Assembly (NCBI GenBank): GCA_963587495.1
Contig: CAVACC010000001.1
Location: forward strand, 3,818 to 67,817
Length of the DNA stretch: 64,000 nt
Source: Clostridia bacterium
GTDB taxonomy: Bacteria; Bacteroidota; Bacteroidia; Bacteroidales; Bacteroidaceae
Reading direction: 5' to 3'
Below the pieces are notes generated by a model that worked only from the letters and a program-made list of their open reading frames with translations, was not told where the DNA came from and ran no database searches. Shown in pieces: positions 996 to 9,078 of the stretch (within the stretch, counting starts at the first letter, position 1; the number at the start of each line of letters is the position of its first letter). The translations under genes and the position numbers were made by a program.

Positions 996-1739
996 ATGGA
1001 CAAATATGGACTTATAGGTTATCCGCTGGGACATTCCTTCTCAAAGAACTACTTCAACGAGAAATTTGAGAACGAAGGAATTGATGCCAATTACATCAAC
1101 TTCGAGATACCACACATCGAAGACCTGACAGAAATCTTGGACACCACACCCGAGTTGAAAGGACTCAATGTCACAATCCCCTACAAGGAAAAGGTTATCA
1201 GCTACCTCGACTTCATCAGCCCTGAGGCTACAGCCATCGGAGCTGTCAACGTCATCAAGGTGGAACACAAAGGAAATGATGTCAAGCTGAAAGGCTACAA
1301 CAGCGACGTCATAGGATTCACCCGCAGCATAGAGCCTTTCCTGGAGCCTTGCCATAAGAAAGCCCTTATCTTAGGTACAGGAGGCGCATCCAAAGCCATC
1401 AACTATGGACTGAAGTCTCTTGGACTCGAGACCGTCTACGTGAGCAGATTCGAGCGCCCTGGAACCATACAGTATGACAAAATAACACCAGAGATTATCA
1501 AGGAGTACAACGTAATCGTAAACTGTACCCCTGTAGGAATGTATCCACATACAGACGAATGTCCCGAACTTCCCTACGAGGCTATGGACAGCCACACCCT
1601 GCTCTACGATCTCATCTACAACCCAGACGAGACCCTCTTCATGAAGAAAGGCAAAGAGCATGGTGCCACCGTGAAGAACGGTCTGGAGATGCTGCTTCTG
1701 CAAGCCTTTGCATCGTGGGACTTCTGGCATCAGGAATAG
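996..1739 (+). CDS. aroE: Shikimate dehydrogenase
   Basis: GYPLGHSFS, GLNVTIPYK, IGAVNVI, GYNSDVIGF, LGTGGAS, NGLEMLLLQA. Confidence 0.93.
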   Translation: MDKYGLIGYPLGHSFSKNYFNEKFENEGIDANYINFEIPHIEDLTEILDTTPELKGLNVTIPYKEKVISYLDFISPEATAIGAVNVIKVEHKGNDVKLKGYNSDVIGFTRSIEPFLEPCHKKALILGTGGASKAINYGLKSLGLETVYVSRFERPGTIQYDKITPEIIKEYNVIVNCTPVGMYPHTDECPELPYEAMDSHTLLYDLIYNPDETLFMKKGKEHGATVKNGLEMLLLQAFASWDFWHQE

Positions 1740-1795
1740 CATCCACTCTCTGCAGACAATATATAATTCTAAATTATTTTTTATATCAATTGATT

Positions 1796-2962
1796 ATGAG
1801 CAACAACAGATATATGATGCGCGGTGTGAGTGCCGCCAAGGAAGATGTGCATAATGCCATCAAGAATATTGACAAGGGAATCTTCCCACAGGCTTTCTGC
1901 AAAATTATTCCCGACATTTTGGGAGGCGACCCTGAGTATTGCAACATCATGCATGCCGACGGCGCCGGCACAAAGTCGAGCTTGGCATACATGTATTGGA
2001 AGGAAACTGGCGACCTCTCTGTATGGAAAGGTATTGCACAGGATGCTGTGGTAATGAATACCGACGACCTCCTCTGCGTGGGAGCCGTAGACAACATCTT
2101 GGTGTCTTCTACCATTGGACGCAACAAAATGCTCGTACCTGGAGAGGTCATCTCTGCCATTATTAATGGTACTGACGAACTCCTGAACGAAATGCGCAAC
2201 ATGGGTATCGGCATCTATCCTACCGGTGGAGAGACTGCTGACGTAGGCGACTTGGTTCGCACCATCATTGTAGACTCAACAGTAACCTGCCGCATGAAGA
2301 GAAGTGACGTCATCAACAATGCCAACATACAGCCAGGTGATGTCATCGTAGGTCTTTCTTCTACAGGTCAGGCTACCTATGAAAAGAAATACAATGGTGG
2401 TATGGGCAGCAACGGACTTACCTCTGCCCGTCATGATGTCTTCGCCAAGTACCTGGCAGAGAACTACCCAGAGAGCTACGACCATGCAGTACCCGAGGAA
2501 CTGGTATATAGTGGCAAATACAAACTGACCGACGAGGTGGAAGGCGCTCCTGTCAATGCTGGCGAACTGGTTCTCTCTCCTACCCGCACCTATGCTCCTG
2601 TCATCAAGAAACTGTTAGACGAACTGCGTCCCGAAATACATGGTATGGTACACTGCACAGGCGGCGCACAGACCAAGGTTCTGCATTTCGTAAACGAGAA
2701 CTGCAAGGTAGTAAAGGACAACATGTTCCCTGTTCCACCTCTCTTCAAGGCCATCCACGACTGCTCTGGTACCGACTGGAAGGAAATGTACCAGGTATTC
2801 AACATGGGTCACCGTATGGAAATCTATGTGCGTCCTGAGGTTGCAGAGAAGGTTATCGCCATCAGCAAGAGCTTCAATATCGATGCTCAGGTAGTGGGAC
2901 ATATCGAGGAGGGCAAGCGCAGCCTGACCATCAAGAGCGAGTTCGGAACTTTCGAATACTAA
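1796..2962 (+). CDS. purM: Phosphoribosylformylglycinamidine cyclo-ligase (AIR synthase); start placed at ATG 1796
   Basis: HADGAGTK, MNTDDLLCVGA, GGETADVGD, SNGLTSARH, HCTGG, VFNMGHRME. Confidence 0.92.
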   Translation: MSNNRYMMRGVSAAKEDVHNAIKNIDKGIFPQAFCKIIPDILGGDPEYCNIMHADGAGTKSSLAYMYWKETGDLSVWKGIAQDAVVMNTDDLLCVGAVDNILVSSTIGRNKMLVPGEVISAIINGTDELLNEMRNMGIGIYPTGGETADVGDLVRTIIVDSTVTCRMKRSDVINNANIQPGDVIVGLSSTGQATYEKKYNGGMGSNGLTSARHDVFAKYLAENYPESYDHAVPEELVYSGKYKLTDEVEGAPVNAGELVLSPTRTYAPVIKKLLDELRPEIHGMVHCTGGAQTKVLHFVNENCKVVKDNMFPVPPLFKAIHDCSGTDWKEMYQVFNMGHRMEIYVRPEVAEKVIAISKSFNIDAQVVGHIEEGKRSLTIKSEFGTFEY

Positions 2963-2965
2963 ATG

Positions 2966-3001
2966 TTTTAGGCACGGATTACACGGATTACACGGATTTT
3001 T
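2966..3001 (+). repeat. Left arm, 3x CACGGATT(A) 9-bp units
   Basis: TTTTAGGCACGGATTACACGGATTACACGGATTTTT. Confidence 0.95.
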
Positions 3002-3054
3002 ATGCATTAATGTCCTTAAATTTTGTTCTTTAATATCTTTTAAATAGTATTGTT

Positions 3055-3456
3055 ATGCTGGAAGAAGATTTAACTAAACAAATAATTGGTGCAGCTCAAG
3101 AAGTACACAAAGTCTTAGGATTTGGGTTTTTAGAAGCTGTATATGGAAATGCTCTGTATAAAGAATTGAAATTACGTGGATTGAAGTGTGAGTGCCAAAA
3201 ACACTTAGATGTTTTTTACAAAGGAGAATGTGTAGGTCACTACATTCCCGACATGGTCGTAGAAGACAAGGTGATTATTGAATTGAAAGCCGTTAAAGAA
3301 TTGCATCCCGAACATGAATGGCAGTTAGTAAACTATCTCTCTGCCTGCCAAGCAGAAGTAGGGTTGCTCATCAATTTCGGTCTATCCTTACAAGTAAAAA
3401 GAAAGATATTTACAAACGAGCGCAAGAGTACACTGCACAGAGAAAAATCCGTGTAA
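3055..3456 (+). CDS. GxxExxY family protein (PD-(D/E)XK nuclease-like fold)
   Basis: GFLEAVY signature, IPDMVVEDKVIIELKAV (PD...ExK), QLVNYL, GLLINFG. Confidence 0.9.
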   Translation: MLEEDLTKQIIGAAQEVHKVLGFGFLEAVYGNALYKELKLRGLKCECQKHLDVFYKGECVGHYIPDMVVEDKVIIELKAVKELHPEHEWQLVNYLSACQAEVGLLINFGLSLQVKRKIFTNERKSTLHREKSV

Positions 3457-3478
3457 TCCGTGTAATCCGTGCCTAAAA
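3443..3478 (-). repeat. Right arm, reverse complement of 2966-3001
   Basis: AAAAATCCGTGTAATCCGTGTAATCCGTGCCTAAAA; contains the GxxExxY stop codon (3454-3456). Confidence 0.95.
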
Positions 3479-3486
3479 AACAATCA

Positions 3487-4596
3487 ATGGATAATAACAA
3501 CATTTTACAGAAATTAGAAGGCTTGGAGAGCCGATACGAGGAAGTCAGCACCCTCATTACCGACCCTGATGTGATAGCAGACCAGAGCCGATACGTGAAG
3601 TTGACCAAGGAATACAAAGACTTGGGCGACATCATGGCGGCACGCAAGCGCTACATCGATTGCCTCAACGCCATCAAGGAAGCCAAGGACATTCTCGCCA
3701 ATGAGAGCGACCCTGACATGAAAGAGATGGCACGCGAGGAACTCAATGAGAACGAGACCCTTCAGCCCCAGCTTGAGGAGGAGATAAAGATTGCCCTTGT
3801 GCCAAAAGACCCAGAAGATGCCAAGAATGTACAGATGGAAATTCGTGGCGGAGCTGGTGGCGACGAAGCCGCACTCTTTGCTGGCGATCTCTTCAATATG
3901 TACAAGAAATACTGCGAGTCAAAGGGATGGACTATCAGCGTGACTTCTGTATCAGAAGGTGCTGTTGGCGGTTTCAAGGAAATCGACTTTGCCGTTAGCG
4001 GAGCTGACGTTTATGGCACGCTGAAATATGAATCGGGTGTACACCGTGTACAGCGAGTTCCTGCCACAGAAACTCAGGGCCGTATGCATACCAGTGCTGC
4101 TACGGTAGCCGTACTGCCCGAAGCCGACAAGTTTGAGGTAAACATCAACGAGGGTGATATCAAGTGGGATACATTCCGTTCGAGTGGTGCCGGTGGTCAG
4201 AATGTCAACAAAGTGGAGTCCGGTGTACGTCTTCGCTACCCCTGGAAGAACCCTAACACGGGTGAGGTGGAAGAGATTCTCATAGAGTGTACCGAGACTC
4301 GCGACCAGCCAAAGAACAAAGAGCGTGCCTTGAGCCGTCTGTACACTTTCATCCACGACCGCGAGCACCAGAAGTATATCGACGATATTGCCAGCCGACG
4401 CAAGAGTCTGGTATCGACAGGTGACCGAAGTGCCAAGATTCGTACATACAACTTCCCTCAGGGACGTGTCACCGACCACCGTATCGGTTATACCACCCAT
4501 GACCTGAGTGGTTTCCTCGGAGGCGACATACAAGGCATGATTGATGCCCTGACCGTAGCCGAGAATGCAGAAAAACTGAAAGAAACAGAATTGTAG
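3487..4596 (+). CDS. prfA: Peptide chain release factor 1; start placed at ATG 3487
   Basis: [48 protein letters not shown]. Confidence 0.95.
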
Positions 4597-4600
4597 AATT

Positions 4601-5437
4601 ATGAACAGAAAAGAACTTGTAGAACAGATATTCGCCAAGAAAAGTTTCTTGTGCGTAGGTCTCGACACCGATATCAAGAAAGTGCCTGAGCACCTCACCA
4701 AACAGTATGAAAAGACAGAAGATGTTATCTTCGCCTTCAATAAGGCCATCATCGATGCCACAGCCCCCTACTGTGTTTCCTATAAGCCCAACCTGGCTTT
4801 CTACGAGAGCATGGGACTGGCAGGCATGATAGCTTTCGATAAGACCATCGCTTATCTGAACGAGCACTATCCTCATCACTTTATCATCGCCGACGCCAAA
4901 AGAGGTGACATCGGCAACACATCAAAGATGTACGCACGTACATTCTTCGAAGAGTATAAGCTCGATGCTCTCACAGTAGCTCCCTACATGGGCGAAGACT
5001 CTGTGAAACCATTCTTGGAATATGAGGGCAAATGGGTCATCCTGCTGGCGTTGACAAGCAACAAGGGCAGCCACGACTTCCAGCTCACAGAAGACAAGGA
5101 CGGTCAGCGCCTCTTCGAGAAAGTGCTGACAAAGAGTCAGGAATGGGGAAACGACGAGAACATGATGTATGTCGTAGGAGCCACACAAGGCAGCATGTTC
5201 ACCGATATCCGCAAATGTGCTCCTAACCACTTCCTCCTTGTTCCTGGCGTAGGTGCACAGGGAGGCAGTCTGCAGGAAGTATGCAAGTATGGCATCATCA
5301 AGGACTGCGGTCTGTTGGTCAACTCTTCACGTGGCATTATCTATGCCAGCAATGGTGAGGACTTTGCCGAGACTGCTGGCATCAAGGCCAAGGAATTGCA
5401 AGAGCAGATGGCAGAAGAATTAGCCAAGCTTTCATAA
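4601..5437 (+). CDS. pyrF: Orotidine-5'-phosphate decarboxylase
   Basis: [44 protein letters not shown]. Confidence 0.95.
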
Positions 5438-5455
5438 AAAACAACTACCTTTTAT

Positions 5456-5490
5456 GGCGCAAAGTACCTCTTATCAGGGTTCTTTGCGCC
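5456..5490. terminator. Hairpin after pyrF, probable terminator
   Basis: GGCGCAAAG...CTTTGCGCC stem just after the stop codon. Confidence 0.55.
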
Positions 5491-5562
5491 TAAAAAGTGT
5501 ATGTTTGCAAGCTAAAATGCAAAATATTACGATTTAATTACAAGTTTATAAATCTTTTTTGC

Positions 5563-6664: not shown

Positions 6665-6761
6665 AGGCACGGATGACGCAGATGACGCAGAGGCTAACGC
6701 CACTAAGACATCCGAAGGAAAGAGAAAAAATCCGTAATCCGTGTAATCCGTGCCTAAAAAA
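6665..6761. repeat. Gene-less copy of the GxxExxY-flanking inverted-repeat element
   Basis: Left AGGCACGGATGACGCAGATGACGCAGA; right AGAGAAAAAATCCGTAATCCGTGTAATCCGTGCCTAAAAAA, near-identical to 3439-3480. Confidence 0.85.
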
Positions 6762-8260: not shown

Positions 8261-9031
8261 ATGAATCAGATTAGTCCTTTAGCATTTGTTCATCCTGAGG
8301 CAAAACTCGGAGATAACAATATCATCGGTCCTTTCTGCTATATTGATAAAGACACCGTTTTGGGTGACAACAACGTGATGCAGAATTCTGTAACCATCCA
8401 TGTGGGAGCACGAATCGGCAATAACAACGAGTTCTTCCCAGGTGCCAGCATCTCTACCAAGCCACAGGACCTGAAGTTCCGCGGTGAGCAGACAACCTGC
8501 GAGGTTGGCGACAACAACAGTATCCGTGAAAATGTAACCATTTCCCGTGGTACTGCCTCAAAGGGCAAGACTGTTGTCGGAAGCAACAACCTCCTCATGG
8601 AGTGTGTGCACGTGGCTCACGACTGTGAGTTGGGCAGCGGTTTGATCATAGGCAACTCTACAAAATTTGCAGGAGAGGTGGTAGTAGACGACAACGCTAT
8701 CGTCAGCGCCAATGTTCTCGTTCACCAGTTCTGCCACATTGCAGGATACGTGATGATTCAGGGCGGATGCCGTTTCTCACAGGACATTCCTCCATATATC
8801 ATTGCCGGTAAGGAGCCTACAAGATACTGCGCACTCAACCTGGTAGGTCTTCGCCGCCGCGGTTTCAGCAACGAACTCATCCAGCAGATTCATGAAGCTT
8901 ACCGTCTGCTCTACTCTAAGGGCGTGCTGAAAGAAGGTATCGAGGAAATCAAGAAGAACCTGCAGATTACCCCCGAGATACAGTATATCATCGACTTCGT
9001 AGAGAACTCTAAGAGAGGTATCATTCGATAA
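8261..9031 (+). CDS. lpxA: Acyl-ACP--UDP-N-acetylglucosamine O-acyltransferase
   Basis: PQDLKF, IRENVTISRGT, HVAHDC, VHQFC, LNLVGLRRRGFS. Confidence 0.95.
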   Translation: MNQISPLAFVHPEAKLGDNNIIGPFCYIDKDTVLGDNNVMQNSVTIHVGARIGNNNEFFPGASISTKPQDLKFRGEQTTCEVGDNNSIRENVTISRGTASKGKTVVGSNNLLMECVHVAHDCELGSGLIIGNSTKFAGEVVVDDNAIVSANVLVHQFCHIAGYVMIQGGCRFSQDIPPYIIAGKEPTRYCALNLVGLRRRGFSNELIQQIHEAYRLLYSKGVLKEGIEEIKKNLQITPEIQYIIDFVENSKRGIIR

Positions 9032-9033
9032 AA

Positions 9034-9078
9034 GTAAAAGGGTAAAAGGGTAAAAAAGTAAAAAGAGCATTCTTGCTT
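9034..9078 (+). repeat. (GTAAAARR)4 followed by AGCATTCTTGCTT
   Basis: Four 8-bp units; same architecture as 41002-41062. Confidence 0.85.

Follow-up and report, generated by a model that had tools for sequence, protein, structure and literature searches.

Why should a gene for a small nuclease-like protein lie between two housekeeping genes, enclosed by a perfect inverted repeat? This question is raised by a 64,000-nucleotide stretch of DNA, hereafter the window, from GenBank assembly GCA_963587495.1 (contig CAVACC010000001.1, positions 3,818 to 67,817 of the forward strand; listed as Clostridia bacterium and placed by GTDB in the Bacteroidaceae), in which a GxxExxY gene stands between a purM-like gene and prfA. 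Comparison of the locus with its relatives makes it very probable that the gene and its arms form a laterally mobile cassette; that the movement is driven by the nuclease of the cassette through action on the arms is an evenly balanced proposition, judged from sequence comparisons. The left arm (2966..3001, plus strand) consists of a T-run, AGG and three 9-base CACGGATT(A/T) units. The right arm (3443..3478, minus strand) is its exact reverse complement (identity 36/36, 441 nt intervening) and likewise holds three units. All coordinates given in a preliminary description of this DNA hold. The next-best inverted repeat outside the arms in the scanned region 1500-5000 measures 29 nt at 72%, and a chance repeat was rejected as the origin of the arms. 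The gene (3055..3456, plus strand) encodes 133 amino acids with a PD-(D/E)XK fold and profile matches, and is preceded by an AT-rich leader (3002..3054, plus strand) of 53 bp, compared with 31 bp in the alleles of the other species that carries the cassette. The right arm overlaps its end and supplies the second and third bases of codon 130, all of codons 131-133 and the TAA stop of the open reading frame (ORF), bearing out an earlier remark, as does the GC content of 0.30-0.40 inside the cassette versus about 0.49-0.53 in the flanks. Upstream, the stop of the host's purM-like AIR synthase gene (1796..2962, plus strand) ends at 2962 and 3 bases separate it from the left arm; downstream, 8 bases lie between the end of the right arm at 3478 and the ATG of the host's prfA at 3487 (3487..4596, plus strand). 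The purM identity is based on matching AIRS Pfam domains with an NCBIfam score below the cut-off, that of prfA on an NCBIfam score above it. Measured against short empty alleles, the whole cassette (2963..3486, plus strand) comprises 524 bp and occupies the purM-prfA spacer. No sigma-70-type promoter was found in its leader, and Rfam gave no match of note for the element, the single chance match lying outside it.

The gene is not a fixed constituent of this junction. Of 29 loci of relatives examined at purM-prfA, 6 lacked one flank, and the GxxExxY gene was absent from all 23 with a readable junction; vertical conservation at this site was rejected on this count. A pattern scan of metagenomes yielded 32 purM-prfA alleles, 30 of them with a spacer of 13-14 bp, which confirms the empty sites that the preliminary description had proposed to look for in relatives. 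In 29 of these 30 short-spacer alleles purM is 96-98% identical to that of the window, and the other two of the 32 alleles belong to other species; the scan pattern excluded the filled alleles of other species, and the counts are no estimate of frequency. The short spacer also stands in the DNA runs X1 and X2 as well as in the RNA run X10, and the short joint is therefore a genomic allele and not a product of splicing. Contigs of X2, X10 and X17 cover filled alleles (runs with small word shares were excluded). Within species, some alleles carry the cassette and others lack it. The genome G141 is identical to the filled locus L062 over 120 bases on each side, yet has a 17-bp spacer, none of which is kept around the cassette, and neither the native 14-bp nor the native 17-bp spacer is retained intact around it. 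As noted earlier, no target-site duplication was seen, here by comparison with the empty alleles. These alleles show that the cassette replaces the native spacer instead of inserting cleanly; of the earlier proposal of an insertion between operon genes, the empty sites stand but the clean insertion does not. The first event may have been an old insertion inside a T/A run. Other inserts at purM-prfA occur in relatives (L025, L008, L011, L014), with small ORFs of 190-320 bp and an 857-bp insert with a motif that we take to be Fic-like.

Filled purM-prfA alleles are also found in another species (L062, L070, G107 and G057), the copy of the gene in L070 carrying a 4-base deletion. Between these four and the window purM and prfA are 83-86% identical, compared with 94% for the GxxExxY gene. 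In the comparison of the window with G107, synonymous codons differ at 14 of 125 positions (11%) in the gene versus 38-51% in nine neighbours, and four-fold sites at 6/44 versus 44-61%; three antisense shadow frames were dropped from the neighbours. Fisher's test of the gene against purM and prfA gives p 3e-12 for synonymous codons and 6e-7 for four-fold sites. The GxxExxY gene is not generally slow, as its mean four-fold difference over 91 pairs is 0.63 compared with 0.56 and 0.54 in the flanks. A tree of purM and prfA places the window among empty alleles (100/99) and joins G107 and L070 to the empty G141 (100/99), this second group being nested in a clade of genomes without the cassette. 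Sister strains with an empty site thus exist for each of the two carrier lineages. Within the first 19 bases of the window's prfA, four sites match the allele of the other species and differ from all 26 empty alleles, and from base 27 on the sequence is of the home type. The signal on the purM side is broken, with two sites (-46 and -34) matching the other species and the home type at -22 and -13, and transfer may therefore have run in either direction. The shared flank amounts to about 19-26 nt of prfA, about 24 nt of rmlD and, in a third pair, at most 12 nt; such short tracts could be eroded or represent old states. These comparisons show that the cassette moves from one species to another, entering the same spacer and taking hardly any flanking DNA along, a same-site pattern seen in three pairs at two sites (purM-prfA and rmlD-prfC).

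Closely related cassettes also occupy other junctions. A close clade of 26 loci with at least 67% identity sits at three sites, with four loci at purM-prfA, 18 next to rmlD or prfC and four at purA-hisS or purA. All called neighbours of these loci are co-oriented with the gene, and an invertible DNA switch was rejected on that basis. The inversion for which the preliminary description had proposed a check was seen in none of the 26 loci, and no strand-change joint was present among the 15 joints listed out of 18. At rmlD-prfC, L068 and L073 differ at two positions over about 490 nt, comprising the cassette and 24 bases of rmlD, against 6-20 differences per 100 in the flanks; L081 and L080 differ at four positions over about 470 nt, against 4-15 per 100. 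In five other pairs tested the drop in divergence across the cassette is absent or weak. A tree built from the flanks of 14 loci is incompatible with three groupings derived from the cassette (approximately unbiased test, p 0.004, 1e-4 and 5e-5). Further states of the same junction are a gene-less hairpin (G073), half-arm remnants (L203, L222) and, in G241, a 48%-identical GxxExxY gene with different arms, and together these states form a series of gain, decay and loss. Here a genus-wide DNA search mostly returned prfC alone, and 30 loci were obtained. In L230 (G241), L158, L077 and L080 the closing codons of the upstream rmlD come from the left arm or are changed by it, giving ends such as LLSTD and LLGTD. 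The three intact proteins of the purA site (L067, L150, L078) share QLLNYL and the end KRKINT and are not grouped on a quick tree; site-linked residues or recombination are possible reasons.

Spread into the same site recalls a classical free-standing homing endonuclease, which would cut the empty allele at a conserved purM or prfA sequence, the arms limiting expression or harm to the operon. Like the free-standing endonucleases of T4, the gene is intergenic, stands beside essential genes with no promoter found, spreads laterally within one site and decays to remnants (PMC2790892). The PD-(D/E)XK enzymes also include a homing enzyme whose site is 17 bp long (PMC3424549). However, proteins of 70-78% identity occupy three junctions among which inspection by eye found no common sequence; one of these junctions is also used by a distant clade. 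The shared flanks measure tens of bases compared with up to 2 kb for T4 (PMC2790892), and the 133-residue model has no separate DNA-binding domain. Homing of this kind also leaves unexplained the gene-less hairpins with related cores at unlinked sites that are described below, and it is considered improbable.

The association of gene and arms extends far beyond this clade. An inverted match scoring at least 35 across the gene was found in 63 of 100 distinct homologue loci and in none of 186 shifted controls, after removal of 10 duplicate and 2 truncated loci. This threshold was set after the control maximum of 34 had been seen; at a threshold of 30 the counts are 67/100 and 1/186. Among the close-clade loci 21 of 23 have arms. 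On a quick version of the protein tree the unit types CACGGAT, CACGAAT, CACAGAG, ACGAAG and GGACT each have clades of their own. The earlier view of gene and arms as one unit is strengthened by these results, and both checks suggested for it, inverted arrays in the flanks of homologues and co-variation of repeat and protein phylogeny, came out positive; the gene is not vertically conserved at its locus and most homologues have arms. The arm unit follows the protein clade and the insertion site does not, and recognition of the arms is for this reason preferred over recognition of a target.

The protein matches TIGR04256 (E 3e-41, 140 bits, cut-off 35) and PF13366 (PDDEXK_3; E 2e-41, 141 bits, cut-off 22), the sole family found in it, and is the single GxxExxY copy in its genome G000, which is 86% complete. 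Across 81 sequences G24, E27, Y30, D66, E76, K78, Q90, Y94, G103 and F108 are invariant, and the acidic-acidic-lysine site formed by D66, E76 and K78 is predicted to be catalytic. The structure model (mean predicted local distance difference test score 89, with a low-confidence tail at residues 125-133) corresponds to a minimal PD-(D/E)XK domain. The best fold matches are Cas4 SSO0001 (E 5e-4), 3ijm (Z 8.4, root-mean-square deviation 3.5 over 99 residues) and the Holliday junction resolvase Hjc 1gef (Z 6.7, 3.4 over 84). These matches are generic, comprising Cas4, restriction-like proteins and Hjc, with tRNA splicing endonucleases among the weak ones, and no subfamily stands out. The protein is thus predicted to have a restriction-endonuclease-like PD-(D/E)XK fold, in line with the superfamily named at the outset, and its nuclease activity is putative. 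A sequence search of the PDB returned no informative relative, and the ESM Atlas nothing above 0.76 after leaving out PF13366. A tblastn search against 50,697 phage records gave no match, and one against 72,556 plasmid records gave eight, all below 60% identity. PF13366 is present in 168 of 301 genomes of the genus, with up to 8 family members per genome. The ratio of nonsynonymous to synonymous substitution rates is 0.01-0.06 in 7 pairs (3 further pairs are saturated), which suggests that strong purifying selection acts on this patchily distributed gene.

Copies of the arms also occur without the gene. A gene-less hairpin with the same arms as the cassette lies between lpxD and lpxC in the window (6665..6755). 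In this spacer G057 has the same hairpin, G107 another repeat family and G074 a short spacer. Altogether G000 holds 16 complete gene-less hairpins of 76-119 bp, plus 8 halves at contig ends. A second hairpin repeat encloses ten of the complete copies as well as the halves, and six of the ten lie between convergent genes; four stand-alone copies, including that of the window, lie between co-oriented genes. The cores of the gene-less copies form families common to unlinked sites and show no match to the interior of the present gene. In the nested copies, at G000 C2:21159-21330 and nine more places, the loop of a hairpin repeat with GAGGGTGTGTCATAA ends contains the GGCACGGAT hairpin, giving a composite repeat of 154-172 bp that is mostly found at terminator positions. 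The GAGGGTGTGTCATAA-ended hairpin also occurs alone in forms of 32 bp and 52-60 bp. Two longer repeated ends that start with the GAGGGTGTGTCATAA hairpin break the assembly of G000 (contig ends C73, C77, C81, C108 and C124, and C31, C42, C75 and C121), and may be the ends of an uncollected insertion sequence. Elsewhere in the window a small imperfect hairpin lies 3' of pyrF, before the lpxD leader (5453-5491), and directly after lpxA a short run of GTAAAAG-type units (9030-9070) is apparently a half arm of a further repeat family. Among the 301 genomes 12 have at least 10 arm hits, 8 have a matching gene (at least 70%) and 4 have both; the matching gene is over-represented among arm-rich genomes (3/7 versus 8/293, p 0.001, with G000 excluded and kin not independent).

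From these observations the following course may be envisaged. A selfish cassette of about 0.5 kb, built of a promoterless GxxExxY gene between two inverted arrays of short units, would inhabit spacers between co-oriented housekeeping genes and, because no promoter was found, would be expressed by read-through from the operon. The nuclease would recognize its own iterated arms, not a conserved target, and would nick or cut at them. Host repair would then copy the unit into the recipient, with the conserved gene ends serving as short homology, and new sites would be founded by rare illegitimate events. The gene-less hairpins with the same arms would represent non-autonomous derivatives spread in trans.

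Replacement of spacers is seen in the genus beyond this cassette. Between G107 and G141, 10 of 50 syntenic spacers are less than 50% identical, most others being 80-100% identical (the comparison was centred on known elements, and the ends of some ORFs are uncertain), and the exchanged spacers involve several repeat families. At four gene-less sites of G107 the same hairpin is found in G057, and the spacers are wholly different in the near-identical G052 (4/4) and in G141 (3/3 examinable). Set against L279-L283, the loci L195-L196 and L284-L286 show about a fifth of the spacers wholly exchanged between strains, with coding flanks 94-99% identical where measured. Spacer replacement is thus a habit of the genus. 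Genes of the four-helix-bundle family TIGR02436, for which we know of no nuclease fold, stand within inverted arrays of 32-33 bp with AATGTTG or AAGGAGTTA units (L291:1420-1881 in G141, L290:1432-1894 in G107), and these arrays have gene-less copies in other spacers. Y1 transposase genes (L293-L299, including G000 C101:156-503) are flanked by GCCCTGAAAGGGC-type repeats and constitute a REPtron-like system in the genus; L292 differs from them in its repeat. It seems that every repeat family is paired with a gene of its own. The resident Y1 transposases were rejected as the obvious partner of the cassette, as its arms occur at none of nine Y1 loci of five genomes, most of which carry a different repeat. 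The Prevotella repeat PINSR was rejected as an identity for the element, as it is 188 bp long and lacks terminal inverted repeats (PMC4755523).

The same spacer data fit an account in which the gene is a passenger: hairpin spacers prone to recombination would be exchanged by host repair or gene transfer, the nuclease would do something else, such as defence or RNA turnover, and the arms would insulate the operon or regulate the gene. That unrelated sequences can take the place of intergenic regions has been described (PMC5890482), and several findings speak for such a passenger and against a nuclease acting on its arms. The swapped spacers of G107 and G141 cut across repeat families, the gene-less sites change wholesale between near-identical genomes, and four-helix-bundle genes share the arm-enclosed build, one of them being present in G141 where G107 has a short spacer. 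Arms persist in genomes without the gene: it is absent from 8 of the 12 arm-rich genomes, including the near-complete G074 with 24 arm hits. Further points weigh against an arm-directed nuclease: the enrichment given above rests on related genomes, and ten gene-less copies may spread with the hairpin repeat that encloses them. Furthermore, 37 of the 100 homologues score below the arm threshold, shared descent alone makes the units of linked arms follow the protein tree, and a by-eye search for residues that change together with the arm unit gave nothing convincing. The passenger account nevertheless leaves unexplained why, in several phyla, 63 of 100 homologues are flanked by arms with a unit that follows the protein clade, why each repeat family has a partner gene of its own, and why a patchy gene is under strong purifying selection. 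It is regarded as unlikely, though the least so of the alternatives discussed here.

The position of the arms in a transcript also permits a reading at the level of RNA, in which either RNase III or the protein itself would cut the 36-bp stem, freeing the message of the gene from the transcript of the operon, and mobility would be secondary. The duplex expected by the preliminary description does form in the predicted fold of 2955-3495, which closes the 36-bp stem with a z-score of -6.6 against 100 shuffles. Where both neighbours are called, 48 of 53 arm-bearing loci are co-oriented with them, but so are 24 of 26 loci without arms. Contigs from RNA libraries, which may include DNA, cover the gene, one of them entering from purM; a skip present in RNA only was found at none of the 15 joints listed out of 18, and contigs cannot show RNA ends. 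The tRNA splicing endonucleases among the weak fold matches would suit this reading, but mismatches in the arms show no bias towards G-U pairs on the mRNA strand (38 versus 51, p 0.2; 11 near-duplicates and loci scoring below 35 left out). The lack of an Rfam match of note also speaks against it, and the iterated units are left unexplained. The processing of the RNase III type suggested earlier is so far unsupported, and as the main function of the element RNA processing is very unlikely; it can hold alongside a nuclease that acts on the arms.

If an arm-directed nuclease drives the exchange, a protein of 133 amino acids places a cargo of 0.5 kb using tens of bases of homology, which would provide a mechanism for spacer switching beside prfA, prfC, hisS and lpxC in a dominant gut genus. 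A wider proposal is put forward tentatively, with rather less confidence: GxxExxY proteins would be the enzymes of a new class of mobile elements that read their own tandem-repeat arms and replace whole spacers via very short homology at gene ends, and would form one of at least three partnerships of enzyme and repeat (GxxExxY, four-helix bundle and Y1 transposase) competing for operon spacers in Prevotella. If true, this would explain why spacers switch so frequently between closely related strains and would assign a first function to PF13366, a family tabulated as of unknown function with multiple transfers (PMC3424549). At this locus each of two species provides filled alleles and empty counterparts, the boundaries are exact, and both cognate and non-cognate arms as well as gene-less substrates are available. 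The element is apparently undescribed in the mostly open-access main texts searched, where the mentions of GxxExxY proteins in the papers listed are passing annotations.

Several known systems share features with the cassette. Insertion sequences and miniature inverted-repeat transposable elements have terminal inverted repeats and occur in gene-bearing and gene-less forms, as does the cassette, which differs in having no transposase-family match or target duplication, in the loss of the native spacer and in its single copy at a fixed site. ORF-bearing intervening sequences of 23S rRNA, which are linked to the four-helix-bundle family TIGR02436, also enclose a small ORF by a long stem in a longer transcript, whereas the cassette lies in an mRNA spacer and its processing is hypothetical. 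As in switched intergenic regions and horizontal regulatory transfer (PMC5890482), an unrelated spacer is substituted between conserved genes, out of step with the gene trees, but the incoming cassette spacers are members of repeat families, some with a gene of their own. With the free-standing homing endonucleases (T4 mobE, PMC2790892; Ssp6803I, PMC3424549; for their movement see also PMC10448857 and PMC2677866) the cassette shares a promoterless intergenic nuclease gene beside essential genes, same-site spread in relatives, and broken copies and remnants. This likeness concerns the pattern of movement only, as the cassette is bounded by inverted arrays with shared flanks of tens of bases, its close relatives lie at unrelated junctions and its gene-less copies are dispersed. 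The REPIN-RAYT systems, including REPtrons and TIRtrons (10.1101/2021.07.10.451892, PMC3733652), resemble the cassette in placing one small enzyme gene between inverted repeats, in their dispersed extragenic inverted doublets of about 100 bp with variable cores and in repeats that outlast the gene. Unlike the HUH/tyrosine (Y1) enzyme of RAYTs, that of the cassette belongs to the PD-(D/E)XK fold, its arms are tandem arrays of a non-palindromic 9-mer, and genomes of the genus contain up to 8 members of its family. RAYTs are described as vertical and congruent with the host tree (10.1101/2021.07.10.451892, PMC3733652), whereas the cassette moves between species and disagrees with it. The analogy to REP/RAYT drawn in the preliminary description is therefore upheld by the gene-less copies but not by the travel between species into the same site: the cassette is REP/RAYT-like in its build and homing-like in its movement.
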